DNA of 64,000 bases, taken from the NCBI GenBank assembly GCA_964593365.1, contig CAZQGQ010000001.1, positions 50,153 to 114,152 on the forward strand, read 5' to 3'. Every line of letters starts with the position of its first letter. The stretch's first letter is position 1. A program made the position numbers and the translations under genes. The notes below the pieces were generated by a model. The model saw nothing but the letters and a program-made list of their open reading frames with translations. It made no database searches and was not told the origin of the DNA. This document shows positions 33,349 through 49,135 of this stretch, piece by piece. Source of the DNA: an uncultured Candidatus Saccharibacteria bacterium. GTDB taxonomy: Bacteria; Patescibacteriota; Minisyncoccia; Phycocordibacterales; Phycocordibacteraceae.

Positions 33349-33361
33349 AAGGAGAAATAGC

Positions 33362-33397
33362 AAAACCGGCCGCTACTGTGCGGCCGGTTTTGCTTTG
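33362..33397. terminator. Bidirectional terminator between SBP2 and regulator 3
   Basis: AAAACCGGCCGC-actgt-GCGGCCGGTTTTGCTTTG. Confidence 0.65.
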
Positions 33398-35456: not shown

Positions 35457-35468
35457 AAGTGAATTCCG

Positions 35469-35503
35469 AAACCGCCCGCATATGCGGGCGGTTTTCTTAT
35501 TTA
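35469..35503. terminator. Bidirectional terminator
   Basis: AAACCGCCCGC-atat-GCGGGCGGTTTTCTTATTT. Confidence 0.65.
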
Positions 35504-36255
35504 GAGACACTCTTTTTTTCCGAAGGAAGTGTTTCCCAAATCACCTTGAACCATGTTCGGAAACTGTCAGCGATGTTTTGGTTCACAATGACCGTATAGG
35601 TTGCAGATTCATCTATTACGCCCGGTTCGATATTGGAGAAGATAATAATGCGGTCTTTGAGAATCTCAACGGCAGAGTTAGTTGATCGAGAAGATGGGAA
35701 GAACTTATTGTCAGACATATCGAGTACGGAGGGAACTGCGGCTCTGGCCTCGTGGTCGAAGATGGCGTAGAAAGTTATGTTCTTCCGTCGAACTTCTTTT
35801 ACAAATTGATCATAGAAGGACGCAATTCGTTTATCTCCCCATGCGCCCTTGGCTCCAAGGGTGTGGACGTCTTCACCTGCGCGCAAAATCTCGCGCATGT
35901 AATTCTTCCAACCTTCAAGTCCGCGATACACATATGTCGCATCTGTTTTGTTTATCACACGGTACTTTGCCTCAAGGTCAGGCATGATCTTCTCAAGAGC
36001 AGTCTCCTTCTCTTTGATGAGCTCCATCAGTTTCTTGGGATCAACCGCCTGGTAACGGTTCTCACCCGTCTGAAGTATTTCAAAAACCACACCCTTCTCT
36101 ATAAGGCGATTCAGAGAGTCATAAACGTTTCTGCGGTTTACCCCTGAATGGACCGCAATCTTACTTACCGACATCTCTCCTTCAGAGAGAAGGGATTCGT
36201 AGATTCGTGCCTCGTTTTTGGAGAAGTTGAGCTGGGTGAGAACGTCAGTAAACAT
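35497..36255 (-). CDS. TrmB/MarR-like wHTH regulator. Cassette 4 regulator.
   Basis: I prefer the ATG at 36255 (MFTDVLTQLNFSKNEARIYESLLSEGEMSVSKIAVHSGVNRRNVYDSLNRLIEKGVV). It aligns with the paralog at 45272. YVYRGLEGWKNYMREIL motif. Confidence 0.7.
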   Translation of the reverse strand: MFTDVLTQLNFSKNEARIYESLLSEGEMSVSKIAVHSGVNRRNVYDSLNRLIEKGVVFEILQTGENRYQAVDPKKLMELIKEKETALEKIMPDLEAKYRVINKTDATYVYRGLEGWKNYMREILRAGEDVHTLGAKGAWGDKRIASFYDQFVKEVRRKNITFYAIFDHEARAAVPSVLDMSDNKFFPSSRSTNSAVEILKDRIIIFSNIEPGVIDESATYTVIVNQNIADSFRTWFKVIWETLPSEKKSVSK

Positions 36256-36356
36256 TGAGGTGTAGATTATCACCATATGGCCATATATGCCACTCATGAG
36301 TAATAACTTACGCTTCCCCGGCATTGGCAGTTACTAAACCCCTGCCAGTAAAACGT

Positions 36357-37436
36357 ATGAAAACAAAGGTTATTTTCGGTTTGCTGGCGATTGTGGCAGT
36401 CGCCCTGCTTATCGGCACGTCAGACAAGGAAGCTGATTCTGAGTCAGAAATCAAGATTGGAGTGGTAACTCCTCTCACCGGAGGGGCTGCCTATTGGGGA
36501 GAATCTTCTCTCGTTGGAATCAGGCTCGCAGAGCAGGAACTCCAAGAGAAAGGGATTCCGGTCCGGGTGATTGTTGAAGATGGGGAGCTTGATCCGAAGC
36601 TTGCCCTAAGCGGTGCACAGAAGCTCGTGAATATAGATGGCATTGATGCCATGTATACCGAGTTCAATCCGGCCGTCATCGCAGTAAGCTCGTTCCTTCA
36701 AGATAAAGATCTTATCCAGATCTGCAACGCGACTCCGGTTTCCCCACTTGCTCTAAGCGAAAACTTCTTCAAAACGTACTTAGATTACGAAGAAAGCTGC
36801 GAGCAAGTGGCGAACGTCCTGCAAGGTCGTGGCCACACGAAAGTTGGGGTTCTGAAAATGAACCTCGAACACGGAGACCTGTGCTTGAAAGGAATACGAA
36901 ACGTGTTTGGCGATAACGTTGTGGTCGAAAACTACAACACTGGAATAGTTGACTTCCGGACCCCTCTTGCAAAGCTTGAAGCCTCCGGAGTCCAGGTCAT
37001 CTTCCACGCTGCGTTTCAGGCCGAGACGTTGGCATCGCTACGAAATATGCGCGAGCTTGGGATGTCGCAGCCGTTCGTCGGCCTTGCTGAGACCATGACT
37101 CCTGGTGTCGCTGAGGAGTTCGAAGACGTGCTAGAGGGGGCTGTAGTCTTTGGGCTTCCGACAGTGTCTCCTGACCTACTTGCAAGACTGAATACGGTTG
37201 CGGTCGATGAGAAGCTTGTAGACCAAAATGCGGCTGCTCTCGCGTATCTTCATATCACGCAACTTGGCGAGGCTCTTAGCGAGTGTAAAAAAGAGACAGC
37301 CTGTGTACGAGAGAAGTTGAAACAGTCCCCCGCGAATGCAGGCGTAGGATTCCAGGGTTTTACGGATCGCATTGCCGGGTTCGATACGCTCATCCAGGAA
37401 TGGAAAGATGGGCAATTTGTCCCCGTTTCTGAATAG
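36357..37436 (+). CDS. PBP1/LivJ-family substrate-binding protein. Cassette 4 SBP.
   Basis: I prefer the ATG at 36357 (MKTKVIFGLLAIVAVALLIG...IKIGVVTPLTGGAAYWGE). Confidence 0.8.
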   Translation: MKTKVIFGLLAIVAVALLIGTSDKEADSESEIKIGVVTPLTGGAAYWGESSLVGIRLAEQELQEKGIPVRVIVEDGELDPKLALSGAQKLVNIDGIDAMYTEFNPAVIAVSSFLQDKDLIQICNATPVSPLALSENFFKTYLDYEESCEQVANVLQGRGHTKVGVLKMNLEHGDLCLKGIRNVFGDNVVVENYNTGIVDFRTPLAKLEASGVQVIFHAAFQAETLASLRNMRELGMSQPFVGLAETMTPGVAEEFEDVLEGAVVFGLPTVSPDLLARLNTVAVDEKLVDQNAAALAYLHITQLGEALSECKKETACVREKLKQSPANAGVGFQGFTDRIAGFDTLIQEWKDGQFVPVSE

Positions 37437-37452
37437 GTCGCTACCAACGTTT

Positions 37453-37484
37453 ACCGCCCGTCTATACGGGCGGTTTTCGTTTAT
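37453..37484 (+). terminator. Rho-independent terminator between SBP4 and livH
   Basis: ACCGCCCGT-ctata-CGGGCGGTTTTCGTTTAT. Confidence 0.6.
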
Positions 37485-37496
37485 ACTAGGGAAAAC

Positions 37497-38372
37497 ATGG
37501 ACATCGTCCCGCAGCTTATCGTCAACAGCCTCATCGCAGGCTCTCTCTACGCGCTTGTCGCGATGAGCTTCAATCTCATCTTCGGCGCGACCAAGTTCTT
37601 CAATCTCTCGCACGGCGTCTTGGCCGCTGTAGGCGGATATACCGCCTTCTTCCTTGGAACGACGCTTGGAGCTCCGGTTTCAGTTGCGGTAGCTGGGGCA
37701 GTGATTGCTGCTGCGGCAATCGGATATGGATTCGAGTTCTTTATCTTCCGCCCGCTTCGAAAACGAAAGGCATCAAACCTCGTTCTCCTCGTTGCTTCCT
37801 TAGGAGCCTTTACCGCAGTTGAGGCCATTATTGCCATTCTCTTCACGAGCCAATTCCGAACGCTTTCCTCGCTTACCGGAACGCCAGGCGTCGTCCACCT
37901 TGGAACAGGCGTGATGACGTATGTGCAGGTAGTCATCCTTGCTTCAGCCGTAGCAATCCTAATTCTTCTCTGGCTCGTGCTCACGCGTACTTCCTTTGGA
38001 AAGGCGGTACGAGCCGTCTCTGATGATGAAGAGGTCGCAAAGATTGTTGGAATTAATACGAACAAGATCATCGGCATCGTTTTTATCGTAGGATCTGCGA
38101 TCGCAGGACTTGCTGGCGTATTCGCTGGCATGGATACGGGCATCGAGCCTCGCATGGGCTTCGTACTTCTATTGAAGGGAGTTATCGCTGCAATTGTTGG
38201 CGGCATTGGAAGCGTGTATGGCGGATTCCTGGGAGCCTTCCTTCTTGGCTTTGCCGAGAACTTCGGTATTTGGTACATCAGCGGAGAGTGGAAGGACGCG
38301 ATCGCTTTTGCGATTCTGATCATCTTCTTGCTTGTACGCCCGCAAGGAATCTTGGGTAAGAAGAAAACATAA
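37497..38372 (+). CDS. livH: Branched-chain amino acid ABC transporter permease (LivH-type)
   Basis: 291 aa, 8 TM. BPD_transp_2 pattern. Ends ...LVRPQGILGKKKT. Confidence 0.85.
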   Translation: MDIVPQLIVNSLIAGSLYALVAMSFNLIFGATKFFNLSHGVLAAVGGYTAFFLGTTLGAPVSVAVAGAVIAAAAIGYGFEFFIFRPLRKRKASNLVLLVASLGAFTAVEAIIAILFTSQFRTLSSLTGTPGVVHLGTGVMTYVQVVILASAVAILILLWLVLTRTSFGKAVRAVSDDEEVAKIVGINTNKIIGIVFIVGSAIAGLAGVFAGMDTGIEPRMGFVLLLKGVIAAIVGGIGSVYGGFLGAFLLGFAENFGIWYISGEWKDAIAFAILIIFLLVRPQGILGKKKT

Positions 38373-38375
38373 TTT

Positions 38376-39242
38376 ATGGAATATCTTATTCACCTGGCGA
38401 TCCTGTTCTCGATCTTCGCAATATTGGCTGTATCTCTCCAGCTTCTTGTCGGATACACCGGCCTTCTCTCCGTTGCCCATGCCGCTTTCTACGGTATCGG
38501 GGCATACGTAGTTGCGCTCACTCTTTCCAATACCGGGTTTGGATTTTTCCCAGCGCTTCTCATGGGAATACTCATAAGCGCGGCAGCGGCCTTCTTGATT
38601 GGTCTGGTGCTCTCGAAGTTCCGTGATGATTACTACGCGCTTGGCTCCCTAGGCTTCAACGTCATCGTATTCTCGATATTCCTTAACTGGCAGGAGGTAA
38701 CACGGGGTCCGCTAGGTATCCCGGGAATCGATCGGCCACAGCTCTTTGGTTTTGTTTTTTCAGAGAACATCGCCTTCCTTATTCTTGCTCTCGTATTTCT
38801 CCTCATTATTTATGGGATCGGGAAATTCATAACGGAGTCTTCTTTCGGGCGCGCGCTCCAGGCGATACGCGAGGACGAACAGGCGCTTTCAGTATTCGGG
38901 TACCGCACCTCATGGTTCAAGCTTGCGATCTTTGTCGTGAGCGCCGCGATGGCGTCAGTTGCAGGCGGACTCTTCGCTTCCTATATAACGTTCATTGATC
39001 CAAGCTCGTTCACGATCGTTGAGTCGATCTTCATGCTCTCCCTTATTATCCTTGGCGGACTCGGTACGCTTCGTGGAGCTATCCTTGGCGCTCTCGTGCT
39101 CATCCTCCTTCCGGAAGCGCTTCGCTTCGTTGGCTTTACGCCAGACATCGCAGCCCAGATGCGCCAAGTGATCTACGGCCTCATGCTCGTCCTTCTTATG
39201 CTGTATCGGCCGCAGGGACTGGTTGGTAAGTACAAGCTTTAG
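38376..39242 (+). CDS. livM: Branched-chain amino acid ABC transporter permease (LivM-type)
   Basis: 288 aa. GLLSVAHAAFYGIGAY...LGGLGTLRGAILGALVL. Confidence 0.85.
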   Translation: MEYLIHLAILFSIFAILAVSLQLLVGYTGLLSVAHAAFYGIGAYVVALTLSNTGFGFFPALLMGILISAAAAFLIGLVLSKFRDDYYALGSLGFNVIVFSIFLNWQEVTRGPLGIPGIDRPQLFGFVFSENIAFLILALVFLLIIYGIGKFITESSFGRALQAIREDEQALSVFGYRTSWFKLAIFVVSAAMASVAGGLFASYITFIDPSSFTIVESIFMLSLIILGGLGTLRGAILGALVLILLPEALRFVGFTPDIAAQMRQVIYGLMLVLLMLYRPQGLVGKYKL

Positions 39243-40105
39243 TTTGTCACTAGTGTTTTGATCTCTTTTCGTATAGCCTCAGCGCGCTTAACATTGCGAG
39301 TTATCGTAAGTGTTGTTTTGCCTGTTTGATTCACAATGCTTTGCATTTCTCTGGCATTAAACTCAGTAAGGTTCTTTACCCCCTCGAACATTGCCTTTAT
39401 ATCTTGGAAAATAAAGTTAGGCACTTTAGTTTCGAAGACAAAGTCTCCAATAACGGTTACGTGGAAGTTATCGCTCGGAGCGCCGTAACCTGAAAGCTTG
39501 CTGTAGAGTTTGAAGTGAAAATTGGAGGCGTTATGAAGCTGGGGTACCAGGCGATTGAGAAGGGTGTGTGAGCCGCTCGCCATATACCAGTCGATATTCA
39601 TGGGCTCAAACCCATGCGCAAGCTCAACTGAACCGTCAGAGCGAAGCACTTGAATCCAAGAATAGTAATTCTTGCTATATGCATTCTTGTCCTTGTGGTC
39701 GTTGTCTCGATAATAGTATGAGATTGTCAGGAGTGCGTGGTCCCAGAACGTATCCATCTCTGTCACACGATCAAATACATAGGCTTTGGTTTCGCCCTCC
39801 TCAAGAATGATAGTTGCCTTGGTGATTTCGTTTGAAAGATGCGTTTGCTTTACTCGATCCGTGAATTTTATGAGGTTCTGTACCCAGGCACTGTAAAGAG
39901 AAAGCGTGCCGTTGTTTTTAACTATCACGCGGTCTGCAAGAAGCTGGCGCAGGATCTTATAGAACCCTTGAAGAGTCATGCCAGAAGGGTATTTGCTGAG
40001 AAAGAACTCAAAAGCCTCCTTGCTTGTTATGCCCGGTTTACGGGACAAAATATCAAGCACTATCCCTTCAGGGGAGGGTTTTTGTTCGTAGGGGTTAGGA
40101 ATCAT
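39239..40105 (-). CDS. Divergent putative regulator occupying the regulator slot of cassette 5 (weak wHTH-like N-terminus, no clear TrmB motif)
   Basis: 288 aa. LDILSRKPGITSKEAFEFFLSKYPSGMTLQGFYKILRQLLADRVIV could be a winged helix. The C-terminal domain is unlike the other seven regulators. Confidence 0.4.
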   Translation of the reverse strand: MIPNPYEQKPSPEGIVLDILSRKPGITSKEAFEFFLSKYPSGMTLQGFYKILRQLLADRVIVKNNGTLSLYSAWVQNLIKFTDRVKQTHLSNEITKATIILEEGETKAYVFDRVTEMDTFWDHALLTISYYYRDNDHKDKNAYSKNYYSWIQVLRSDGSVELAHGFEPMNIDWYMASGSHTLLNRLVPQLHNASNFHFKLYSKLSGYGAPSDNFHVTVIGDFVFETKVPNFIFQDIKAMFEGVKNLTEFNAREMQSIVNQTGKTTLTITRNVKRAEAIRKEIKTLVTN

Positions 40106-40206
40106 AGGGAGTAAACGTTTCGTTTAGAATAGTATAATAGTTGATTAACTGTTTACTTTTGTCAACTACATCGTAGAGTGCTGCCGTACCAAATAACGGC
40201 ACACAT

Positions 40207-41301
40207 ATGCAAAACGTACGACAGTTAGTAACTCTGGTTGCGGCAGTTCTGGTTGTTCTTGGTGGTGCGTATGTGCTTTCCCAAGGCTCTTCAAGCTCTA
40301 GTGATACCGTGAAGATTGGGTTCATTGGTCCACTTACCGGATCGATGGCGAGCATTGGTGAATCAAGTCTTGCGGGCGCCATGCTCGCCGTAAAGGAGAT
40401 AAATGATAAAGGAGGTCTTCTTGGGAAAGAGGTTGAGCTTATCGTTGAAGACGACAAATGCTCTGCTGACGGAGCAACGGCGATTAGTAAACTTATTAAC
40501 GTAGATAAAGTAGTCGCTATCTCCGGCCCTGATTGTGGAGCCTCAGGCTCTGCGGCGCTTCCTATAGCAGAAGAAAAGCAAACTCCGGTTGTCATTCGTT
40601 GGGCATCCGCTCCTCCTCTTGCGAAGATAGGAGAGTATATTTTCCGTATCTATCCTTCAGATGCGTTTCAGGGGAGGTTTGTCGCTGATTACATCTTCAA
40701 CGAGCGAAAGGAACGGAAAGTAGCTGTTCTCTACGTCAAAAACGTATGGGGTCAGGGCATTACCGAAGTGTTTGTCGAACGGTTTAAAGAGCTTGGGGGC
40801 GAAGTAGTGTTTGAGGAAGGGGTGCTTGAAGACACTCGGGATCTTAAGACTCAGTTGAACTTGATACAGAATTCAGGCGCAGACATTCTCTTTGCGCCGC
40901 TCTACGCACCAAACGGGGTTATCGCACTTCGACAGATGAAGGAGCTTGGGTTCAAGATCCCCGTTGTCGGAGGAGACGTATTTGAAAGTGCTGAAGTTCA
41001 GGAGGCTCCTGGCGCAACTGGCGTTCTATTCTCAGCTGCGATCATCACAAACCCAGGAGACTTCCAAGCGCGTGTAGCGAAAGAGGTAGGGCGCGACGGG
41101 AGTCGAGTGACTGCGCCACTGGGGTACGACTCGGTCATGGTTATCGCTCAGGCAATTGAGCGCGCTGGCTCTCTGGATCGAGAAGGGATTCGAGATGCCC
41201 TTCAAGAAACGTCATACGCAGGAGTTGCGTTCCCCATGATTGAATTCGATCAAGACGGAGACCTGCTTGAGGCACGGTACGAAATTAAAAAGATCCACTA
41301 A
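40207..41301 (+). CDS. PBP1/LivJ-family substrate-binding protein. Cassette 5 SBP.
   Basis: MQNVRQLVTLVAAVLVVLGGAYVL...VKIGFIGPLTGSMASIGESS...GGLLGKEVELIVEDDKC. Confidence 0.8.
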   Translation: MQNVRQLVTLVAAVLVVLGGAYVLSQGSSSSSDTVKIGFIGPLTGSMASIGESSLAGAMLAVKEINDKGGLLGKEVELIVEDDKCSADGATAISKLINVDKVVAISGPDCGASGSAALPIAEEKQTPVVIRWASAPPLAKIGEYIFRIYPSDAFQGRFVADYIFNERKERKVAVLYVKNVWGQGITEVFVERFKELGGEVVFEEGVLEDTRDLKTQLNLIQNSGADILFAPLYAPNGVIALRQMKELGFKIPVVGGDVFESAEVQEAPGATGVLFSAAIITNPGDFQARVAKEVGRDGSRVTAPLGYDSVMVIAQAIERAGSLDREGIRDALQETSYAGVAFPMIEFDQDGDLLEARYEIKKIH

Positions 41302-41305
41302 AAGA

Positions 41306-42082
41306 TTAATCTTTCACGATTAATGTTGATACATCCCACACTAACTCAAACTGGGACCGTAGAAAGTCCGCAAAGTCCTTACTTCGAACTACGAACCCGT
41401 ATGCTTCGCGTTTGGAGGAAATAAAGGCTGCGGTGTGGCCAGAGAGCCAATACCCCATACTAAGCGTCTTCATGTTCTTGGGGGCCATACGGACTTCCCG
41501 CATCGACTCATTACCAACTTTCGGATTGAACTGTCGGTTTAAATTATCTAAATCGTCAGTGTACGACCATATACCCCGTACATATATTTTATTCTTTATT
41601 CGCTTCTCAACGATGTCGACCATATTCTCTGCGCCAAGAAGATTAACCACGTCTTCGATGGACCACATAGCGATACTATCGGTGTCGCCGGAATAAACAA
41701 TCTGATTCAGTGCTTGCTTTACACCTTCCTTTCCCGAATAGAACTTGAATTTGGGATCAACGGATTCGAACTGCTGCATCAAGGCAGGGATTTCAAGCGC
41801 GACCCGATCTCGCTCTTCTGCCAAGTGTTCAATCTTGTCATTAAGAAGGCGGGTGAGTTGCTTAGGATCGTCTACCTGATAAAGGTTCTTTGTTCCTTCA
41901 AATCGTTCGACAACCAGTCCCCGGTTTATTAACGCCTTGAGATAGTCGTAGGTGGATTGTCTATTTATCTCTAAACGTTCCGCAATTTGTTTGGCCGATG
42001 AAGGCCCATATTCCAGTAGGGAGGCGAACACCTGATGACTTGCCTCAGAAAGGCCTAGTTCCTCAAATGTCTGTTTAAGCAT
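41306..42082 (-). CDS. TrmB/MarR-like wHTH regulator. Cassette 6 regulator.
   Basis: FEELGLSEASHQVFASLLEYGPSSAKQIAERLEINRQSTYDYLKALINRGLV; FYSGKEGVKQALNQIV. Confidence 0.7.
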   Translation of the reverse strand: MLKQTFEELGLSEASHQVFASLLEYGPSSAKQIAERLEINRQSTYDYLKALINRGLVVERFEGTKNLYQVDDPKQLTRLLNDKIEHLAEERDRVALEIPALMQQFESVDPKFKFYSGKEGVKQALNQIVYSGDTDSIAMWSIEDVVNLLGAENMVDIVEKRIKNKIYVRGIWSYTDDLDNLNRQFNPKVGNESMREVRMAPKNMKTLSMGYWLSGHTAAFISSKREAYGFVVRSKDFADFLRSQFELVWDVSTLIVKD

Positions 42083-42101
42083 GTAGATACTATATGCCTC
42101 A

Positions 42102-42124
42102 GTTGTCGAGTTGTCGACGACACA
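42102..42124. promoter_or_regulatory. Putative operator: tandem GTTGTCGA GTTGTCGACGACA (contains a GTCGAC palindrome)
   Basis: Lies in the 80 bp divergent intergenic region between regulator 6 and SBP6. Confidence 0.4.
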
Positions 42125-42161
42125 TTTACATCAGGACGTATTTGGAATAAAGTCAAGGGCA

Positions 42162-43298
42162 ATGAAAAACATATTCTGGATTGGAGCGGCAGCTGTCCTC
42201 CTTGGGATCATTACTATCTTTAGCATTTCAGGCCCTAAGCCTGCTTCCGGAGAACCGATAAAAATTGGAATCTCAACCATGCTGAGCGGAGACTACGCTG
42301 CACTGGGGGACAATATTGTAAAAACAGCAGAATTGGCTGTTGCTGAAGTTAACGTCAAAGGAGGTATTAATGGAAGGCCACTGGAGCTTGTAGTTCAGGA
42401 TGCAGGCCTTGATAGTAAGACCGGTCTTGCGGCAGCACAAAAACTTATTAACGTTGACGGCGTTAAATATATTATTGGCGGTACATCCAGTAACGGTACG
42501 CTTGCTGCAGCTCCATTGGCAAATGAGCACAAGGTTATTTATATGACCCCCGTTACAGGCGGAGCAAATGTGGACTCTGCTGGCGAATATATCTTCCGCG
42601 TTGCAAATGGTGACCTCCTTGCTGGTAAGCAGCTTGCAGAAGCAGCAGTGAAGCTCGGGTACAAGAACGTTGCAGTTGTAGCTGAAGTTACTGAATACAC
42701 TCTCGACATCAAGAAGAGTTTCGAAGAAGCGATTAAAGACCAAGGAGCAGTAGTTGTTGCATCTGAGGAGTTTCAGCCAGGGACGACCGACTTCAGAACT
42801 ATTATTGCGAAAGTGAAAACGCAAAACCCTGAAGCCATTCTTATCGTCTCTCAAACGGGAGTGGGCGGGGCAAACTTCGTAAAACAATCTCGAGAAGCGG
42901 GTATAGAAGCACCCCTCTTCTCAGACTTTAACTTTGTAGCAAATACGAGCGCCAAAGAAATAGTTGGATCGTTTGAGGGAATTTATTTTGCTGACCCTGC
43001 GTATGGAGCAGACGCAGGAGAAACAAAAGCGTTCTTTGAGAGATACGAAATAGCATATGGTTCTCAACCCTTTATTCCTTTTCACTCAGCATCTACATAT
43101 GACTCGGTCATGATGGTTGCTGACGCCCTTAAGGCTGTGGGAGATGACAGCATAAAAGTGCACGACTGGCTTCTGGGTGAAGTACAGAACCGCAAAGGAC
43201 TTATGGGGACATTCTCTATTGATCAGCAAGGAAACTCAGATTTAGGCTTTGTTATTAAGGTTATACGAGATGGGAAACCGGAGGTGGTTTTCAATTAA
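42162..43298 (+). CDS. PBP1/LivJ-family substrate-binding protein. Cassette 6 SBP.
   Basis: I prefer the ATG at 42162 (MKNIFWIGAAAVLLGIITIF...IKIGISTMLSGDYAALGD). Confidence 0.8.
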   Translation: MKNIFWIGAAAVLLGIITIFSISGPKPASGEPIKIGISTMLSGDYAALGDNIVKTAELAVAEVNVKGGINGRPLELVVQDAGLDSKTGLAAAQKLINVDGVKYIIGGTSSNGTLAAAPLANEHKVIYMTPVTGGANVDSAGEYIFRVANGDLLAGKQLAEAAVKLGYKNVAVVAEVTEYTLDIKKSFEEAIKDQGAVVVASEEFQPGTTDFRTIIAKVKTQNPEAILIVSQTGVGGANFVKQSREAGIEAPLFSDFNFVANTSAKEIVGSFEGIYFADPAYGADAGETKAFFERYEIAYGSQPFIPFHSASTYDSVMMVADALKAVGDDSIKVHDWLLGEVQNRKGLMGTFSIDQQGNSDLGFVIKVIRDGKPEVVFN

Positions 43299-43317
43299 AA
43301 TACGCTACACTATTCGA

Positions 43318-44049
43318 GTGAACACACTCGAGACCAAAGACCTCGCAAAAGTATTCGGCGGCGTGAAAGCTGTTAACGGTCTTTCTGTCTCCATTCCAAA
43401 GGGAAAGATTACGGGTGTCATTGGTCCAAATGGATCAGGTAAAACGACGCTTACGAACGTTCTCACAGGAATCTATCCTATAGATGGAGGTGTCGTTGTT
43501 ATCGAAGGCAAGGAACGCTCAAAGATAAAATCGCATGAGGTGTTTTCACTTGGCCTCACGCGCACCTTCCAAAACGTACGGGTGTTTGAGCAGGTAAGCG
43601 TGCTTGATAACGTGCTTATCGCACTCACGCGTCGCAACATCCTAGGCTCTTTGTTTGAGCGCGCTAATGGAGAACACGCAAAGAAAGCACAAGAAGTACT
43701 TGAGCGTGTAGGGCTCTGGGATAAGCGAGAGGCAAACGCCTCAGAACTTTCATACGGACAAAGAAAGCTTCTTGAGATTGCTCGCGCGCTTGCAACTGGC
43801 ACAAACACTATTCTTTTTGACGAACCATACGCAGGACTGTTCCCTGAGATGGTGAAGCTTGTCTCAAGCATCATGCGAGATCTCCGAAGCGAAGGGAAAA
43901 CCATCGTGCTTATCGAACACGACATGGCGCTTATTCGGGAACTCTGCGACTACGTTATCGTCATGGATGCAGGAAAACTTCTCGCGCACGGAACCGCAGA
44001 AGAAGCGCTTTCCAATAAGGCAGTTATTGAGGCGTACTTGGGCGTGTAG
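43318..44049 (+). CDS. livG: ABC transporter ATP-binding protein (LivG-type)
   Basis: LETKDLAKVFGGVKAV...GPNGSGKTT...LSYGQRKLLEIARAL...ILFDEP...EAYLGV. The TTG-initiated track ORF (43249) overlaps the SBP by 50 nt out of frame. The GTG at 43318 is a more plausible start. Confidence 0.8.
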   Translation: MNTLETKDLAKVFGGVKAVNGLSVSIPKGKITGVIGPNGSGKTTLTNVLTGIYPIDGGVVVIEGKERSKIKSHEVFSLGLTRTFQNVRVFEQVSVLDNVLIALTRRNILGSLFERANGEHAKKAQEVLERVGLWDKREANASELSYGQRKLLEIARALATGTNTILFDEPYAGLFPEMVKLVSSIMRDLRSEGKTIVLIEHDMALIRELCDYVIVMDAGKLLAHGTAEEALSNKAVIEAYLGV

Positions 44050-44050
44050 G

Positions 44051-45160
44051 CTATCTGTCGATAGATACGAAGGCTCCGTTTCGGATTACCTTGAATGAGG
44101 TTGGTTTATAGGCTGTTCCGTCTGTCTCGATACTTATGGAGCCACTGACGCCATCATAGTTTTTTACTGAGTGAAAGAATTCAAGCATGCAGTCGGTTTC
44201 ATCTGCGCAGCGGTCATAGGCAGCCGACTCAAGCATGAGTCCGTCATAGGCGTTTCGAGCAAAGACGTCGGCTTCTTGGCCAAATCGTTCTTTGTAGCGA
44301 CGATTAAAGTCGAGCACATCCTCACTTGGAGGAAGCGGTTCGTCAGAAGAGATGTAAAACCCCTCTGCGGAAGCTCCTGCAATTTCAATGACACTAGGAT
44401 CCTCGTTCTGGGAGTTCCCTAGTATACGAGCCTCTATTCCAAGCTCGTCTGCTTGTTTTAGAAGATTGCCCAGAGGTTTCGCTAGTTGCACAACGAATAT
44501 GACATCTGGGTTCTTTTCCTTAATTTTTGTAAGCTCAGTCCGAAAGTCTGACGCGTCTATGAGCGTGACTTGTTCAAGCAGGACTTCACCGCCGCGCTCT
44601 TCGAATGCCGTCGAGAAGTGCTTGCGGTAGTCTTCGCCAAGCGGGGTGTTGTAGTAGAGGATTGCTGCTGTCTTTGCGCGCAGTGTATTTGCAGCAAACG
44701 TTCCAAGTTCAGTTGCTTTGAGTTTGATGGATGTGTTGGTCGAGACTACGTATGTATGACCAAGAACTGAATCCGGATTGGGAGCCAGGTTTACACCGAT
44801 TAGCTGATGCTTTTCTAGGAGATCAATGACTGGTACAAAGCCTGCTACGCAAAATGACCCGCCTAGTAGAGTGATGCGGTCACTTTCGATAAGTTTCGTA
44901 ATTGCAGAAAGGGCATCTTTAGGTTGGCACGCATCTTCGTAGATGACCTCGACTATAGAGCCCCGAGCAGCCAAGTCTTCTTTTGCAAGTTCAAAGCCAT
45001 TGCGTACTCGTTCTCCCAGCACGGCAAAGTTGCCTGACAGGGGAATCAAAACACCAACACGCAGCCCTTCCTTCTTTGGCCCTTGGGAAAGCTGAAAACC
45101 AAGGATCACGGCGGCAAGGATAATCACAACCGCACCGACTACCAGATGGCTCTTATTCAT
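44051..45160 (-). CDS. PBP1/LivJ-family substrate-binding protein. Cassette 7 SBP.
   Basis: MNKSHLVVGAVVIILAAVILG...LRVGVLIPLSGNFAVLGE. Confidence 0.8.
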   Translation of the reverse strand: MNKSHLVVGAVVIILAAVILGFQLSQGPKKEGLRVGVLIPLSGNFAVLGERVRNGFELAKEDLAARGSIVEVIYEDACQPKDALSAITKLIESDRITLLGGSFCVAGFVPVIDLLEKHQLIGVNLAPNPDSVLGHTYVVSTNTSIKLKATELGTFAANTLRAKTAAILYYNTPLGEDYRKHFSTAFEERGGEVLLEQVTLIDASDFRTELTKIKEKNPDVIFVVQLAKPLGNLLKQADELGIEARILGNSQNEDPSVIEIAGASAEGFYISSDEPLPPSEDVLDFNRRYKERFGQEADVFARNAYDGLMLESAAYDRCADETDCMLEFFHSVKNYDGVSGSISIETDGTAYKPTSFKVIRNGAFVSIDR

Positions 45161-45173
45161 GGTTTCTGCAAGT

Positions 45174-45187
45174 TATTGACAACGTGC
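45174..45187. promoter_or_regulatory. TTATTGACAACGTG motif (TTGACAAC half-site shared with other cassettes)
   Basis: Lies in the divergent intergenic region between SBP7 and regulator 7. Confidence 0.3.
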
Positions 45188-45271
45188 AGAGGTTAGGATG
45201 TATACTACGAGTGGCCAATATCACCGCGTGGTGGCACACACCACCAACATAAGAAACACCATATAAACTCT

Positions 45272-46018
45272 ATGTATAGTGAAATCCTCTCGAAACTAGA
45301 CTTATCGAAGAATGAGTCCAAGATTTATGAAACTCTCCTTGAGGAAGGAGAGTCATCGGTAGGATTCATTGCTACCAAATCGAAGATAAACAGGAGAAAC
45401 GTATACGACTCCATGAATCGTCTTGTAGAAAAAGGGCTCGTCTTTGAAATATTCCAGAAGAACGAGAATCAATATAAAGCTGTGGGTCCGCACAAGCTTC
45501 TAGACCTCCTCAAGGAAAAAGAATCGGCGCTCATGTCGATCATGCCGAATTTAGAAAAGCTCTACAATGGTGTTGCGCACGAAGAAGATGTTTACTTATA
45601 CAAAGGTATTGAGGGTTGGAAGAATTTTATGCGCGATATTCTTCGGATTAACGAGGATGTATATATCATTGGAGGGAAAGGGGCTTGGGCTGATCCCAAA
45701 CTTGATGGCTTTCGAGAGGACTTTCTTAAAGAGGCAAAGAAGCAGGGTATAGAGATACATGTCCTCTATGATCCCGAGATTCAAGAAAAGAATCATCCGA
45801 TTCTTTCGCTCCTCAACAGCACACACCGCTTTTTGCCGAAAGGACTGTCTTCAGCTGGAGCAGTGACGGTCTTCGGTAATCAAGTTGTTATGCAGTCGGC
45901 TATCAAGGTGGGGCAAATACAAGAAAACGTCACTTCAACCGTTCTTATCAATGAACCCATTGCCGAGATGTTTCGTATCTGGTTCAAGCTCATGTGGGAG
46001 GCTAGCGAGAAACCATAA
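45272..46018 (+). CDS. TrmB/MarR-like wHTH regulator. Cassette 7 regulator.
   Basis: MYSEILSKLDLSKNESKIYETLLEEGESSVGFIATKSKINRRNVYDSMNRLVEKGLV; YLYKGIEGWKNFMRDIL. Confidence 0.7.
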   Translation: MYSEILSKLDLSKNESKIYETLLEEGESSVGFIATKSKINRRNVYDSMNRLVEKGLVFEIFQKNENQYKAVGPHKLLDLLKEKESALMSIMPNLEKLYNGVAHEEDVYLYKGIEGWKNFMRDILRINEDVYIIGGKGAWADPKLDGFREDFLKEAKKQGIEIHVLYDPEIQEKNHPILSLLNSTHRFLPKGLSSAGAVTVFGNQVVMQSAIKVGQIQENVTSTVLINEPIAEMFRIWFKLMWEASEKP

Positions 46019-46030
46019 AAGGTTATTTCC

Positions 46031-46774
46031 TTGAGGTACAATATTTCTGTGTCTAAAGAAACTCTACTCAAACTCAACGATATTCACGTCCACTACGGAG
46101 GCGTGAAGGCACTTGATGGCGCGTCAGTCACTTTGGACGAAGGAGAGATTGTCGCGCTCATGGGACCAAATGGCGCAGGCAAATCAACGATCCTTAAAGC
46201 GCTCTTCGGTCTTGCTCCGATAAAAGCAGGGGCAGTGCTTTGGGAAGGACATGCATTCACTCCTGTTCCTCATGAAGTAGTAGACCGCGGCATAGCTTTT
46301 GTTCCTCAGGGACGCCGTGTGTTTGCCGATCTTACCGTCGAAGAGAACCTCGAGATCGGCGGATTCAAAGTAGGGAATGCTCGCTTAATCAAAGAACGAA
46401 TACAAGAACTTTACGAACTCTTCCCGGTGTTGAAGGAGAAGCGACATGCGAAATCAGGAACACTTTCTGGAGGACAGCAGCAGATGCTCGCTATCTCCCG
46501 CGGCCTTATGACCGATCCTAAAGTCCTTCTTCTCGATGAGCCTTCCCTCGGTCTTTCTCCGAAGTTCGTTACCGAGATCTTCGCGTTCGTGAAAGATATT
46601 AACGAAAAGCGGAAAACCTCGATCATGGTCGTCGAGCACAACATCAAATCTCTCCTTACTATCGCCACCCGTGGCTACATCCTCGATAAAGGGAAGGTAG
46701 TCGCTCACGGCTCTCCGCAGGAACTAGTATCCAAAGGTACGCTCGAAAAGGTCTTCACCGGGGCTGCGCTCTAA
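46031..46774 (+). CDS. livF: ABC transporter ATP-binding protein (LivF-type), TTG start
   Basis: LLKLNDIHVHYGGVKAL...GPNGAGKST...LSGGQQQMLAISRGL...LLLDEPSLGLSP. Confidence 0.8.
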   Translation: MRYNISVSKETLLKLNDIHVHYGGVKALDGASVTLDEGEIVALMGPNGAGKSTILKALFGLAPIKAGAVLWEGHAFTPVPHEVVDRGIAFVPQGRRVFADLTVEENLEIGGFKVGNARLIKERIQELYELFPVLKEKRHAKSGTLSGGQQQMLAISRGLMTDPKVLLLDEPSLGLSPKFVTEIFAFVKDINEKRKTSIMVVEHNIKSLLTIATRGYILDKGKVVAHGSPQELVSKGTLEKVFTGAAL

Positions 46775-46790
46775 GTGCTATCATTGGCAG

Positions 46791-47528
46791 ATGTTAATTG
46801 TCGCCAACTGGAAAGCGTACGTAGACTCTAAGGAAAAGGCGAAAAAGCTCTTTGCCGCTGCTAAGCGCCTTTCAACAGTGAAGCGCGTGAAGATCGTGCT
46901 CGCTCCTCCCACCCCGTATCTAGGACTCTTGGCGCTCAACAACCGCACTAAGATCATGTTTGCGGCTCAAGACGTATCAGAGGCAACTGCAGCAACAGTC
47001 ACGGGGGAAGTAACAGCTCCTATTTTGAAGAGCATGGGCGTTAAGTACGTCATCATCGGCCACTCAGAACGTCGACGACGAGGAGAGAGCGATGAGCTCA
47101 TTACCGAGAAAGTCCGTCGAGCTCTTGCTAACGGCATAACGCCTATCCTTTGTATCGGAGAGCGTGAGCGTGATCCGGACGCTCGCTATCTCGCATTCCT
47201 TCGAAACCAGATCGTTTCCGTATTCTCTGGCCTCTCTCCCAAAGAACGCCTTGGCATCATCATCGCGTACGAACCCATCTTCGCTATCGGAAAGACGGCA
47301 GCAGACGCGCTTAACTCAGCAGACGTTGCTGAGATGGTTCTTTATATACGCAAAGTGTTGAGCGAGCTTGGTATTAGCAAGACCGGCATAAAGATTTTGT
47401 ACGGAGCATCCGTTGAGCCGGAAAATATCCGAGGCCTTGCAGGCGGGAGCGGTGTCGACGGATTTCTGGTGGGACACGCAAGCGCAGATCCTGCGATGTT
47501 CTCTGCGTTCGTGAAGACTTTGACGTGA
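46791..47528 (+). CDS. tpiA: Triosephosphate isomerase
   Basis: ANWKAY..., IIGHSERRR, CIGERE (active-site Glu), AYEPIFAIGKT. Confidence 0.85.
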   Translation: MLIVANWKAYVDSKEKAKKLFAAAKRLSTVKRVKIVLAPPTPYLGLLALNNRTKIMFAAQDVSEATAATVTGEVTAPILKSMGVKYVIIGHSERRRRGESDELITEKVRRALANGITPILCIGERERDPDARYLAFLRNQIVSVFSGLSPKERLGIIIAYEPIFAIGKTAADALNSADVAEMVLYIRKVLSELGISKTGIKILYGASVEPENIRGLAGGSGVDGFLVGHASADPAMFSAFVKTLT

Positions 47529-48658
47529 GGACAATACAAGACATCAAGGTTCTAGAAAATGTTTCAGTGCTTGTCCGCACTTCCTTGAATGTGCCCGTCG
47601 AGAACGGAAAGGTCGAAAACACCTTTCGCCTCAAGGCCGCGCTTCCAACGATCGCCTACCTTCAGGAGCGCCACGCCCGCGTCATCTTGATAAGCCATAT
47701 AACCGGTAAGGGAACAGAGACTCTGGAGCCCATGTATAAGGCGATGCGCGAGTGGGTGCCTAACCTTTCTTTCTGTCCGGTTTCAACAGGTCCGCAGGCC
47801 CGCCAAGCAGTGCGCGACCTCATGCCAGGACACGTGCTCATGCTCGAGAATCTCCGCCGCAATGTAGGCGAAGAGAAGAATGATCCTGAACTAGCGAAAG
47901 AACTTTCAATGCTTGCGGACGTATTCGTACAAGATTCTTTCGATACCTGCCACCGAAAGCACGCGTCTATTGTCGGAGTTCCTGAACTTCTGCCGTCGTA
48001 TGCAGGCTTCACGGTTGAAGCTGAAGTATATGAGCTATCAAAAGCCTTAAAGCCGAAACATCCTGCGGTTGCCATCATCGGAGGCGCGAAGTTCTCTACC
48101 AAAGAGCCCGTTCTGAAAGTGCTCCTTAAAACCTATGACCGTGTGTTTGTGGGCGGAGCGCTGGCAAACGACTTCCTAAAAGCAAAAGGTTTTTCAGTTG
48201 GAGCGTCCCTGGTCTCAGACGAAGGACAGACCGGCATTCGTGAGCTTCTGAAAAACAAGCGACTCGTCACTCCTTCGGACGTTATTGTCGCTCCACCTAA
48301 TACAGACCGCAAGGAAGGACATGTTGTCTCGGTCTCTGATATTCCTGAGAACGAAGCAGTACTTGATGCAGGCCCACAGACCGCCGAAGAACTCGTACAA
48401 CTGGTAACCAAATCAAAGATGGTGCTCTGGAACGGCCCGCTTGGTCTCTTCGAGCACGGGTTTGTCGACTCTACCCGCACCCTTATCCGTGCGGTCGCAG
48501 CGTCTAAAACACACTCAATCATTGGTGGCGGAGATACGGTCGAAGCGATCGAAGAACTCGGTGTTCGCGCTGAATTCTCCTTTATTTCAACGGGAGGAGG
48601 CGCCATGCTTGATTACCTTGCGTACGGGACGCTTCCCGGACTCCAAGCACTTCGGTAG
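47525..48658 (+). CDS. pgk: Phosphoglycerate kinase
   Basis: 377 aa. VLVRTSLNVP, LENLRRNVGEEKND, FISTGGGAMLDYL. Overlaps the tpiA stop by 4 nt. Confidence 0.9.
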   Translation: MRTIQDIKVLENVSVLVRTSLNVPVENGKVENTFRLKAALPTIAYLQERHARVILISHITGKGTETLEPMYKAMREWVPNLSFCPVSTGPQARQAVRDLMPGHVLMLENLRRNVGEEKNDPELAKELSMLADVFVQDSFDTCHRKHASIVGVPELLPSYAGFTVEAEVYELSKALKPKHPAVAIIGGAKFSTKEPVLKVLLKTYDRVFVGGALANDFLKAKGFSVGASLVSDEGQTGIRELLKNKRLVTPSDVIVAPPNTDRKEGHVVSVSDIPENEAVLDAGPQTAEELVQLVTKSKMVLWNGPLGLFEHGFVDSTRTLIRAVAASKTHSIIGGGDTVEAIEELGVRAEFSFISTGGGAMLDYLAYGTLPGLQALR

Positions 48659-48667
48659 AATAGAGGA

Positions 48668-49129
48668 ATGAAAGGTGATTGTATCTTTTGCCAGATAGTC
48701 CAAGGCACCGCTCCTGCTCACACGATATGGGAAGACGACAAGCATCTGGCATTCCTATCCATATTTCCGAACACCGAAGGGTTTTCAGTGGTTATTCCGA
48801 AAGAGCATCAGGGAAGCTACTTCGCCGAAGTGGAGGAAGGGGTCACGTCCGACCTCATCAAGGCCGCCCGCAAGGTAGCAAAGAAGATAGATGCGGCATT
48901 CCCGGAAGTCGGACGCACCGCGCTCATCTTCGAAGGCTTTGGCGTTGACCATTTGCACGCGAAGCTCGTTCCTCTCCATGGCACCGCCTCCGACACCTGG
49001 AAACAGCATCGCTCATCGGTAGGGAAGTATTTCACCTCCTACGAAGGATACGTATCTTCCCATGACTTCGAGCGGGCAGACGATGAGGTGCTTGCGAAAA
49101 TTGCGAAAAAGATTCGAGGAGCAGCATAA
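48668..49129 (+). CDS. HIT-family protein (histidine triad-like)
   Basis: MKGDCIFCQIVQGTAPAHTIWEDDKHLAFLSIFPNTEGFSVVIPKEH. The triad region reads DHLHAKL, so the third His is replaced by Lys. Confidence 0.6.
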   Translation: MKGDCIFCQIVQGTAPAHTIWEDDKHLAFLSIFPNTEGFSVVIPKEHQGSYFAEVEEGVTSDLIKAARKVAKKIDAAFPEVGRTALIFEGFGVDHLHAKLVPLHGTASDTWKQHRSSVGKYFTSYEGYVSSHDFERADDEVLAKIAKKIRGAA

Positions 49130-49135
49130 GGAGCC

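Follow-up and report, generated by a model that had tools for sequence, protein, structure and literature searches.

Translocator genes of a LIV/HAAT-type ABC importer interleaved with binding-protein/regulator cassettes in a Patescibacteria genome

Described systems and the present locus

In E. coli, livJ and livKHMGF make up the LIV-I/LS system (TC 3.A.1.4), with four contiguous translocator genes co-transcribed behind livK and with livJ as a separate unit that has its own terminator. At malE-malFG and hisJ-hisQMP, an intercistronic hairpin follows the gene for the substrate-binding protein (SBP), and expression of the genes beyond it depends on read-through or mRNA processing. The locus described here encodes one LIV/HAAT-type ABC importer in the genome of an ultra-small bacterium of the Patescibacteria (Paceibacteria-like). 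It shares with E. coli liv the LivK-type SBP, the LivH/LivM permeases and the LivG/LivF ATPases, as well as the presence of more than one SBP per translocator (one SBP gene, livJ, standing apart in E. coli). However, its translocator genes form three units, with SBP and regulator genes of either strand between them, and the window—the whole 64,000-nt stretch of DNA that was analyzed—contains eight SBP genes, with putative TrmB-type regulation. As in malE-malFG and hisJ-hisQMP, a stable stem-loop separates an SBP gene (highly expressed in those systems) from genes for membrane components, but here a conserved -10-like TATACT comes right after the hairpin, at leaderless spacing.

The five genes natA-natE of the N-I neutral amino-acid transporter of Anabaena sp. 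PCC 7120 are 'spread in the genome' (PMC4500139), and it is therefore established that translocator subunits can be encoded in separate transcription units. N-I is likewise a TC 3.A.1.4 transporter, but its genes occupy distant loci and serve a single SBP, whereas the present genes keep a conserved order in one locus with many SBP cassettes. The trehalose/maltose (TM) cluster of Thermococcus litoralis and Pyrococcus furiosus reads malE malF malG treT trmB malK (PMC4158304); trmB immediately precedes the ATPase gene malK on the same strand, as the regulator at 45272 precedes livF here, and a further likeness is that the TrmB operator is palindromic and lies at the promoter of the SBP gene. However, the TM transporter is archaeal, takes up sugars, represents another ABC family and works with a single SBP and a single regulator. 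Moreover, Thermococcus TrmB carries a C-terminal sugar-binding domain, whereas the TrmB-like proteins of this locus (~250 aa) gave no Pfam match to the PF11495 effector domain and have a TrmBL2-like predicted fold, which makes their response to ligand uncertain. Finally, mycobacteria show leaderless transcription in which the -10 element stands close before the ATG or GTG (PMC3898074, PMC4633059); the likeness is that TANNNT lies 6-9 nt before gene starts here, with both ATG and GTG in use. A literature search found no paper describing leaderless transcription for Patescibacteria.

Gene arrangement in the window and in related species

The single LivH/M/G/F set of the window is encoded in three units, livH-livM (37497-39242), livG and livF (Table 1), each beside a different cassette, and Pfam identities and coordinates agree on this point with the sequence-only reading. 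Two opposite-strand genes (39239-40105 and 41306-42082) occupy the livM/livG interval and a third (44051-45160) the livG/livF interval, so the physical split is forced by geometry. Twenty-one contigs with this exact LivM were consulted, and the gene order was the same, as far as the contigs reach, at the six places shown, which come from several samples; the layout does not stem from misassembly.

Table 1. Features of the importer locus, in window coordinates
Feature	Position	Strand	Evidence or remark
TrmB-family regulator, cassette A	31295..32113	-	PF01978, E 1.8e-12; orthologues 65-78% identical in L008, L011, L025
Promoter-like TTGACA-16-CATACT, cassette A SBP	32156-32183	+	Promoter scan
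SBP (LivK-like), cassette A	32221..33348	+	Peripla_BP_6, E 2e-55
Two-way terminator-like hairpin	33359..33394	both	15-bp stem, 10 G-C pairs; between convergent SBP and regulator genes
TrmB-family regulator, cassette B	33373..34206	-	PF01978, E 2.2e-12
SBP, cassette B	34356..35456	+	Peripla_BP_6, E 3e-45
Terminator-like hairpin 3' of cassette B SBP	35468..35495	+	82% identical to livH hairpin; repeat family D9
TrmB-family regulator, cassette C	35497..36276	-	PF01978, E 7e-17; source gene call, 259 aa
SBP, cassette C (SBP4)	36357..37436	+	Peripla_BP_6, E 1.6e-31; source gene call
Intrinsic-terminator-like hairpin with T-rich tail	37453..37484	+	Before livH; stem 37453-37474, 9 bp, 7 G-C, 4-nt loop
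TATACT, candidate -10 of livHM promoter	37482..37487	+	9 nt upstream of livH ATG
livH (permease)	37497..38372	+	BPD_transp_2, E 1.7e-41 (Pfam)
livM (permease)	38376..39242	+	BPD_transp_2, E 3.7e-46 (Pfam); 80 relatives, 64-82% identity
ORF288, predicted TrmB-like fold	39239..40105	-	Converges on livM, 4-nt overlap
SBP	40207..41301	+	Peripla_BP_6, E 3e-62; 47% identity to SBP at 32221
TrmB-family regulator, cassette E	41306..42082	-	PF01978, E 4.5e-15; orthologues 76% (L017) and 68% (L025) identical
Candidate operator palindrome GTTGTCGA-N4-TCGACGAC, cassette E	42102-42121	+	Conserved in L025
Candidate promoter TTTACA-17-TAAAGT, cassette E	42125-42153	+	-10 ends 8 nt before ATG 42162
SBP, cassette E (SBP6)	42162..43298	+	Peripla_BP_6, E 1.5e-59
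TACACT, -10-like hexamer of livG	43306..43311	+	6 nt upstream of GTG 43318
livG (ATPase)	43318..44049	+	ABC_tran and BCA_ABC_TP_C (Pfam); N-terminus aligned with relatives
SBP, cassette F	44051..45160	-	Peripla_BP_6, E 6e-45; converges on livG, 1-nt gap
Promoter-like TTGACA-19-TATACT, cassette F regulator	45176..45206	+	Beside palindrome 45165-45190; segment conserved in L008
TrmB-family regulator, cassette F (regulator 7)	45272..46018	+	PF01978, E 9.5e-16
TACAAT, -10-like hexamer of livF	46037..46042	+	6 nt upstream of GTG 46049
livF (ATPase)	46049..46774	+	ABC_tran, E 6.5e-33 (Pfam); N-terminus alignment with relatives, source gene call
tpiA, pgk, HIT-family gene, recJ	46791..50845	+	Co-directional with livF; gaps 16, -4, 9, 6 nt

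The starts of the two ATPase genes needed adjustment. livG had been placed at or inside the stop of the preceding SBP gene (43296-43298); homology supports GTG 43318 (MNTLETKDL..., as in relatives), 19 nt past that stop, whereas 43298 is the last nucleotide of the stop and no start codon. The source's own gene call starts livG at an alternative ATG, 43270, and the gene would then share 29 nt with the SBP gene. The 12-nt spacing claimed for livF behind the regulator stop (46016-46018) holds for TTG 46031, where the longest ORF opens, but homology and the source gene call favor GTG 46049, 30 nt past the stop. Both junctions are too short for a promoter-sized gap, and a terminator scan found no terminator in either spacer, which leaves livG and livF open to read-through transcription. 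The order livF-tpiA-pgk-recJ recurs in L007, L008 and L011 (L-numbers denote loci of the comparison set, about 80 related Patescibacteria species).

Between 31295 and 46018, Pfam identified six Peripla_BP_6 (LivK-like) SBP genes and five PF01978 TrmB regulators, and five of the six SBP genes have a TrmB-family regulator gene transcribed divergently from them. Two further SBP/regulator cassettes lie elsewhere in the window, and the numbering used earlier (SBP4, SBP6, regulator 7) fits once an extra cassette at 14944-16958 is counted. The longest ORF of the cassette C regulator reaches 36324. The model of the regulator at 45272 (pLDDT 92), with TrmBL2 5bpd (E 1e-13) and TrmB 3qph as best PDB matches, predicts a TrmB/TrmBL2 fold. 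ORF288 matched no Pfam family, nor did a profile comparison link it to the TrmB-like regulators; the best PDB match of its model (pLDDT 85) was TrmB 3qph (E 7e-6). Homologues of ORF288 occur in other genomic contexts.

Sigma-70-like promoter matches sit in the divergent intergenic regions of the cassettes, and these candidate promoters and operator palindromes vary from cassette to cassette, in line with the differing regulation proposed by the earlier reading. For the 31295 and 41306 cassettes, conservation of the candidate operators extends to several orthologues: the cassette A alignment retains TGTTG-N11-CAACA and TTGACA elements, and the cassette E segment TAAAGTCAAG...ATG is kept in L017 and L025. 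The intergenic region of the 45272 cassette is ~80% identical in its single orthologue, L008, where the regulator is 91% identical and the SBP, in the same position, 85%.

We found that the splitting of translocator genes by cassettes is normal for the clade. Among 45 relatives' loci with all four genes, 11 are contiguous and 32 have SBP genes between translocator genes, while opposite-strand genes intervene in 19 of the 45 species-level loci. The order H-M-G-F is kept, with SBP/regulator insertions at 37 of 63 M/G junctions, 20 of 49 G/F junctions and 8 of 71 H/M junctions. Interleaving with every gene on one strand is seen in 14 related loci; L043, for example, reads S S S H M S S S G S S S S F, and most of its gaps measure 0-25 nt. 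The SBP-regulator-livF arrangement also occurs in L008, and regulator-SBP-livG in L025. The assertion that this organization has no parallel was thus wrong, both for these 32 interleaved loci and in light of the Anabaena nat genes (PMC4500139) and the Thermococcus TM cluster (PMC4158304).

Hairpins and -10-like hexamers

The terminator-like hairpin previously reported between SBP4 and livH-livM was confirmed, with the T-rich tail TTTTCGTTTA running from the stem to 37484; the 60-nt SBP-livH spacer has a folding energy of -23.9 kcal/mol (z = -3.5 vs shuffles). Hairpins occur at 26 of 39 SBP>livH junctions of relatives and, in a gap-matched comparison, at 20/24 such junctions vs 11/57 others (p 9e-8). 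The stems differ among species and are not homologous, while the structure is conserved. On this comparison, the hairpin upstream of livH is a conserved part of the design and no obstacle.

The hairpin is followed by TATACT. In the five closest relatives this hexamer is invariant, 8-10 nt before the ATG, despite differing stems and a differing SBP gene in front of livH. Across 67 loci, an exact TATACT lies within 36 nt upstream of livH in 23 (shuffle mean 1.4; reverse strand 3) and TATANT lies upstream of livH in 40 (shuffle mean 7.9; reverse strand 4). With starts assigned by homology, which could bias hexamer-to-start distances, and against a background that takes no account of AT-richness in intergenic DNA, TANNNT stands 6-8 nt upstream of livH in 31/67 loci (p 2e-11), of livG in 15/45 genes not abutting livM (p 2e-5) and of livF in 10/34 genes not abutting livG (p 0.002). 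Genes abutting the preceding translocator gene gave 0/40 for livM and 1/17 for livF, but 5/17 for livG. Individual cases include TACAGT-6-GTG at livG of L025 and, 6 nt before livF, TAGAAT (L007), TAAAAT (L008), TACAAT (L025) and TATAAT (L048).

The same spacing recurs across the window. Coding sequence makes up 91% of it, yet 10 of its 17 TATACT sites fall between genes. Six sites stand 6-9 nt ahead of the start of a long ORF (P about 1e-12, on the same background), and of 23 genes at and near the locus, 9 have TANNNT at that distance upstream (P about 6e-8). In the 80 loci, ORF-opening ATG/GTG codons after TATACT peak at 6-9 nt (30, 17, 10 and 17 vs ~3-5 elsewhere). This spacing, enriched in clade and window, suggests leaderless transcription. 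The internal promoters anticipated before livH, livG and livF thus have candidates in the -10-like hexamers, but a consensus promoter scan returned no -35/-10 site just before any of the three, and no convincing -35 element was found upstream of them. The livH hexamer, at 9 nt, falls at the margin of the 6-8 nt peak. Several relatives carry GAGG 12 nt ahead of the start of livF, a sequence that could instead serve for ribosome binding on a polycistronic RNA.

Transcription of the translocator units

On balance, we lean slightly towards compact promoters of the translocator units' own, which would free them from sole dependence on the neighbors' regulated promoters. The hairpin, the TATACT and the hexamers at enriched spacing make such promoters probable; we infer promoter activity and leaderless initiation of the livH, livG and livF units from motif position only. 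The claim that translocator expression depends on three regulated promoters loses its necessity here, as the hexamers at 9, 6 and 6 nt suggest leaderless-type promoters.

A less probable account, to which we give perhaps half as much credence, denies the translocator genes promoters of their own: livHM would be fed by hairpin read-through from the SBP promoter at ~36300, livG from the SBP promoter at ~42150 and livF from the regulator promoter at ~45200, so that three different TrmB-type regulators gate translocator assembly. The terminator-free 19- and 30-nt junctions speak for it, as do equally tight junctions in relatives (median gaps: SBP>livG, 9 nt; SBP>livF, 10.5 nt), the persistence of the orthologous arrangements in L025 and L008, the empty consensus scan and the trmB-malK precedent of Thermococcus. 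However, hexamers at leaderless spacing precede all three units and are enriched clade-wide, and the conserved hairpin with its invariant TATACT resembles a terminator-plus-promoter module. Moreover—as a matter of logic, not data—gating an importer of eight SBPs by the inducers of three cassettes would render the other cassettes useless. Since two thirds of the relatives' split livG/livF genes carry no TANNNT at 6-8 nt, read-through from the upstream gene must nonetheless matter in many genomes.

A single long plus-strand transcript, crossing the whole array into tpiA-pgk with the hairpins as processing or stability elements, is improbable. The scan detected no strong plus-strand terminator past 37474 through livF and beyond, the convergent gene pairs (-4, 4 and 1 nt) leave no room for terminators, and the 14 one-strand interleaved loci, such as L043, fit it. 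Against it, such an RNA would be antisense to three minus-strand genes (two regulator-type, one SBP), three strong plus-strand hairpin-plus-T-run sites precede livH (33359, 35468 and 37453), each divergent intergenic region has promoter-like sites and conserved palindromes, and the leaderless-type signals point to many short transcription units. Equally doubtful is that TANNNT 6-9 nt before starts is a translation-initiation or compositional signal of the clade, uninformative on transcription units: the hexamer does occur inside tight co-directional strings (TATCAT 6 nt upstream of the tpiA ATG; 6 nt before the HIT gene) and mostly without a -35 partner, but it is strand-specific, fits the -10 consensus (TATACT, TATAAT) beyond mere AT-richness, is missing before livM and pgk, which overlap the preceding gene, and keeps the usual distance from -10 to transcription start, established for sigma-70 promoters and mycobacterial leaderless genes.

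Under the favored reading of compact promoters for the translocator units, the intrinsic-terminator-like hairpin would insulate livHM from the SBP gene before it, and transcription of livHM would probably restart at TATACT to give a leaderless or nearly leaderless mRNA. livG and livF may take read-through from the SBP or regulator gene upstream, while their hexamers 6 nt before GTG could provide regulator-independent basal expression, possibly supplemented by the neighboring cassettes. One translocator, its genes always ordered livH-livM ... livG ... livF and interleaved with six diverged LivK-like SBP genes, would then be the common, constant part of the system, presumably shared by all SBPs, and the cassettes, presumably repressed by the TrmB-like proteins, its regulated and exchangeable parts.

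Translocator genes and their separation

Two permease genes, two ABC ATPase genes and cluster-B LivJ/LivK-like substrate-binding protein (SBP) genes were recognized by their Pfam matches (see the table below), placing the system in the LIV/HAAT type (TC 3.A.1.4). The window comes from a 647-kb Patescibacteria contig (JGI 3300015360, Ga0163144_10000007). An HMM scan of all ORFs in the window returned no second translocator set. Four genes separate livM from livG and two separate livG from livF; three of the six are encoded on the opposite strand. The adjacent, co-directional arrangement with nothing between of a textbook contiguous livKHMGF-type operon is not found here. Since both intervals contain opposite-strand genes, the physical division of the translocator into three units—livHM, livG and livF—is real, as the sequence-only reading had held. 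The same layout was observed, up to each contig's ends, in the six places listed, from several samples, among 21 contigs with an identical LivM.

Coordinates of the features discussed (window positions)
Feature	Position	Strand	Assignment or basis
tRNA cluster	6359-8188		Arg-TCG, Gly-GCC, Pro-TGG, Gly-TCC
Distal cassette, SBP gene	14944-16059	-	HMM scan
Distal cassette, regulator gene	16134-16958	+	HMM scan
Small membrane protein gene	30749-31276	-	PF04973, sub-threshold
D9 hairpin copy	35471-35503		after an SBP gene
D9 hairpin copy	37453-37485		after the next SBP gene
G+C-rich stem-loop before livH	37453-37474		terminator-like
TATACT before livH	37482-37487		-10-like hexamer
livH	37497-38372		LivH/LivM-type permease; PF02653 BPD_transp_2, E 1.7e-41
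livM	38376-39242		LivH/LivM-type permease; PF02653 BPD_transp_2, E 3.7e-46
ORF288	39239-40105	-	predicted TrmB-like fold
SBP stop before livG	43296-43298
livG	43318-44049		ABC ATPase; PF00005 and branched-chain-type C-terminal motif PF12399
Regulator stop before livF	46016-46018
livF	46049-46774		ABC ATPase; PF00005
Downstream housekeeping genes	46774-50845		tpiA, pgk, HIT-family gene, recJ
Distal cassette, regulator gene	57187-57942	-	HMM scan
Distal cassette, SBP gene	58047-59183	+	HMM scan

The start codons of livG and livF are corrected in our annotation. Alignment with the N-termini of LivG from relatives points to a GTG (protein MNTLETKDL), with ATG 43270 as an alternative start; the junction with the SBP gene upstream is tight, as had been described, but livG begins 19 nt downstream of the SBP stop codon rather than at or inside it. 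Likewise, the start of livF reported 12 nt past the regulator stop holds for TTG 46031, while homology and the source gene call both prefer the GTG at 46049. At the other end of livG, positions 44040-44049 read ...GGCGTGTAG. Relatives whose livG and livF are contiguous have ...GGCGTATGA there, the livF ATG overlapping the livG stop; the 3' end of livG may be a vestige of an ancestral livG-livF overlap. Upstream of livF, similarity to the 3' end of livG is confined to TTGAGG...TAC, too weak to support a duplication. Downstream of livF, tpiA, pgk, the HIT-family gene and recJ follow on the same strand at 16, -4, 9 and 6 nt, so that this ATPase gene heads a housekeeping string, and the order livF-tpiA-pgk-recJ is retained in three loci from related species (L007, L008 and L011).

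Layout of the locus in related species

The locus was compared with 80 species-level loci, all from Patescibacteria-type genomes and with LivM proteins 64-82% identical, in which ORFs were classified by searches seeded with the window proteins. Across these loci the translocator genes retain the order H-M-G-F on a single strand. Among the 45 showing all four translocator genes, contiguity was observed in 11, at least one SBP gene between translocator genes in 32 and opposite-strand genes at such positions in 19; in 14, SBP genes are interleaved with everything on one strand. Insertions occur at 37 of 63 livM-livG junctions, 20 of 49 livG-livF junctions and 8 of 71 livH-livM junctions. Close relatives share the flanks (pilin-like genes upstream, tpiA-pgk-recJ downstream) but differ in cassette content: L011 has contiguous HMGF, L007 carries a cassette before livF, in L008, livF is preceded just as in the window by the orthologous SBP-regulator cassette (identities of 85% and 91%), and L017 and L025 hold an orthologous regulator-SBP cassette after livM. 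This frequency, together with the cassettes shared among relatives, indicates that the split is the norm of the clade and has remained stable as species diverged.

The earlier statement that the organization has no parallel is therefore contradicted by the 32 SBP-interleaved loci, and parallels to a split layout also exist in the literature. The five genes of the Anabaena N-I transporter, a member of the same TC family, are "spread in the genome" (PMC4500139), and the TM cluster of Thermococcus/Pyrococcus has the order malE malF malG treT trmB malK (PMC4158304). Our literature search for interleaved SBP arrays in Patescibacteria/CPR gave generic mentions only, an absence that is no proof of novelty.

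Binding proteins and their regulators

The array (31.3-46.8 kb) contains six SBP genes, all matching PF13458 (Peripla_BP_6), whose products are 26-47% identical to each other. For the SBPs at 32221, 36357, 42162 and 44051, the nearest solved structures are of the LivJ/LivK type and represent Leu/Ile/Val- and amino-acid-binding proteins (e.g., 4gnr, 1usg, 1z15, 4nqr and 3td9); at such mutual identities these structures back an amino-acid-type ligand only, and a more specific assignment was rejected. With the two distal cassettes (see the table), the window holds eight SBP genes for a single translocator, and the existence of these cassettes accounts for the numbering used in the sequence-only reading. 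From this ratio of one translocator set to eight SBP genes, we infer that the translocator is common to all of the SBPs.

Five TrmB-family regulator genes lie in the array, each divergent from an SBP gene, and their products match the PF01978 winged helix with 47-62 bits (cut-off, 25.6 bits). The effector-binding domain of TrmB with its sugar-binding C-terminal subdomain, PF11495, was unmatched at E <= 0.01 in the array regulators. The model of the 248-aa regulator at 45272 (pLDDT 92) shows a predicted fold of winged helix, coiled coil and PLD-like subdomain; its best match is TrmBL2 (5bpd, E 1e-13), and it also aligns with TrmB (3qph, 2f5t) over the N-terminal, PLD-like part. As this protein lacks PF11495, ligand sensing by it is putative. 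ORF288 was considered as a further cassette regulator because its predicted fold is TrmB-like, and was set aside: it has neither a Pfam match nor profile-profile similarity to the other regulators, and its homologues occur in other genomic contexts, not adjoining SBP genes. The ORF288 family comprises only ~40 proteins in a large database, and a 68%-identical homologue in the related locus L089 lies within a type IV pilus gene cluster.

Each divergent cassette intergenic region contains a distinct palindrome, a candidate operator; those of the cassettes at 31295, 41306 and 45272 lie at 32120-32143, 42102-42121 and 45165-45190, respectively. In the cassette at 31295, TGTTG-N11-CAACA and TTGACA are conserved in aligned orthologous cassettes of at least two relatives; in that at 41306, GTTGTCGA-N4-TCGACGAC is conserved in L025, and the -10 element TAAAGT, located 8 nt upstream of the ATG, is conserved in both L017 and L025; and in that at 45272, most of the intergenic region, including TATACT, is ~80% identical in the sole orthologue, L008. 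A consensus scan also placed sigma-70-like promoter matches in the divergent intergenic regions; their total is no higher than in shuffled sequence (13 against 19.5), and only this placement, not the overall count, is informative.

Duplication of cassettes as regulator-plus-SBP units is contradicted by disagreeing identity matrices: identity is 48% between the regulators at 35497 and 45272 and just 28% between their SBPs, and the SBPs at 32221 and 40207 share 47% identity, with unrelated neighbouring genes. Sequence comparison suggests that a conserved regulator can exchange its SBP partner; orthologues of the regulator at 31295 in L008, L011 and L025 are 65-78% identical, and the adjoining SBPs reach at most 40-54% identity to any window SBP.

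The G+C content is 0.45-0.51 over the cassette array (30001-46000) and 0.49 over the distal 57-59 kb cassette (56001-60000), against 0.52-0.575 over most of the remaining window, and nucleotide identity to relatives gave no clear sign of recent transfer. Recent lateral transfer of cassette F (at 45272) was considered in view of its amino-acid identity to L008 of 85-91%, against 61% for tpiA and pgk. At the nucleotide level, the identity of 79-81% against 68-74% is only modestly higher, so that vertical inheritance with stronger constraint suffices. Mobile-element boundaries were rejected after a repeat search over 30500-47000: the borders of the cassettes carry no terminal or target-site-like repeats, and the only repeats detected were the terminator-like element D9 and coding paralogy. 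At the Rfam gathering score, nothing was detected in the array, the only hits being the four tRNAs at 6.3-8.2 kb. A small membrane protein gene separates the first cassette from the pilin-like genes; its PF04973 (nicotinamide mononucleotide transporter family) score is 22.5 bits, below the cut-off of 27.3.

Hairpin, candidate promoters and regulation

The strong terminator reported before livH is borne out as a terminator-like structure: on the transcribed strand, the stem-loop is followed by a TTTTCGTTTA T-run, and the spacer folds at -23.9 kcal/mol (z -3.5 against shuffles). Among relatives, such hairpins are found at 26 of 39 SBP>livH junctions, compared with 3/32 for SBP>livG, 3/18 for SBP>livF and 6/91 for SBP>SBP; with gaps matched to 40-130 nt, the figures are 20/24 for SBP>livH and 11/57 for other junctions (Fisher p 9e-8). 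Stem sequences differ among species, so it is the structure itself that is conserved. Within the window, a single element, D9, supplies the terminator-like hairpins that follow two successive SBP genes, its two copies being 82% identical over 33 nt.

Hexamers of the -10 type (TANNNT, about 6-9 nt upstream) precede every translocator unit: TATACT 9 nt before livH, TACACT 6 nt before livG and TACAAT 6 nt before livF, the latter two distances being exactly 6 nt to the homology-supported GTG. The SBP-livH spacers of the five closest relatives are 56-62 nt long and contain a strong hairpin of varying sequence, followed in every case by TATACT 8-10 nt upstream of the ATG, despite non-orthologous upstream SBP genes. 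Across 67 other loci, the 36 nt upstream of livH contain TATANT in 40 (shuffle mean 7.9, maximum 19; reverse strand 4) and exact TATACT in 23 (shuffle mean 1.4, maximum 5; reverse strand 3), and the distance to the livH start peaks at 6-8 nt. At this distance, TANNNT occurs in relatives before 31/67 livH genes (p 2e-11), 15/45 livG genes not abutting livM (p 2e-5) and 10/34 livF genes not abutting livG (p 0.002); the counts are 0/40 for livM abutting livH and 1/17 for livF abutting livG.

The motif extends beyond the translocator. Although 91% of the window is coding, 10 of its 17 TATACT sites are intergenic, and six lie 6-9 nt before a long-ORF start; of the 23 genes around the locus, 9 have TANNNT 6-9 nt upstream, tpiA and the HIT gene among them, and over the 80 loci the ATG or GTG codons that open an ORF are most frequent 6-9 nt past TATACT or TATAAT. 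Start-proximal hexamers occur window-wide (e.g., at 8256, 9934, 10703, 23830, 37482 and 56129) and in loci L007-L086, far above chance. Judged by the established -10-to-start spacing, the hexamer-to-start geometry of 6-9 nt is that of leaderless transcription. This suggests that leaderless transcription may be widespread in this Patescibacteria lineage; for the phylum, our literature search found no description of it or of a 6-9-nt promoter spacing.

All statements on transcription of the liv locus are ones we infer from the DNA. The three-unit split stands; it does not oblige the translocator to rely for its assembly on three differently regulated promoters, as had been proposed, since -10-like hexamers precede every unit. 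Better supported is a picture in which the SBP cassettes would be individually controlled, each translocator unit would carry its own compact -10 promoter—a terminator-plus-promoter module in the case of livHM—and livG and livF would also receive read-through from the upstream gene. More broadly, the Paceibacteria-like liv locus may be a modular SBP cassette array, a tentative reading to which we give somewhat less than even weight: the translocator junctions would be sites of gain, loss and exchange of SBP genes, alone or together with TrmB-like regulators, and a minimal leaderless -10 promoter would maintain the expression of each translocator gene thereby cut off from its operon, with livH also insulated by a terminator.

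Patescibacteria have tiny genomes with few biosynthetic pathways and scavenge their building blocks. Some 20 kb of the 64-kb window is given to eight binding proteins and their regulators around a single translocator, and dozens of species show this interleaving. For annotation, the result carries a warning that adjacency can mislead on operons or on "missing" ABC subunits in these genomes. The hairpin-plus-TATACT module and the 6-9-nt -10 spacing offer testable predictions on transcription in Patescibacteria. If the modular array is true, it would be a previously undescribed route by which a genome of ~0.65 Mb diversifies uptake specificity around one constant transporter; and should each cassette have its own regulation and minimal promoters drive the translocator constitutively, a reduced genome would gain a wide, tunable substrate range cheaply.
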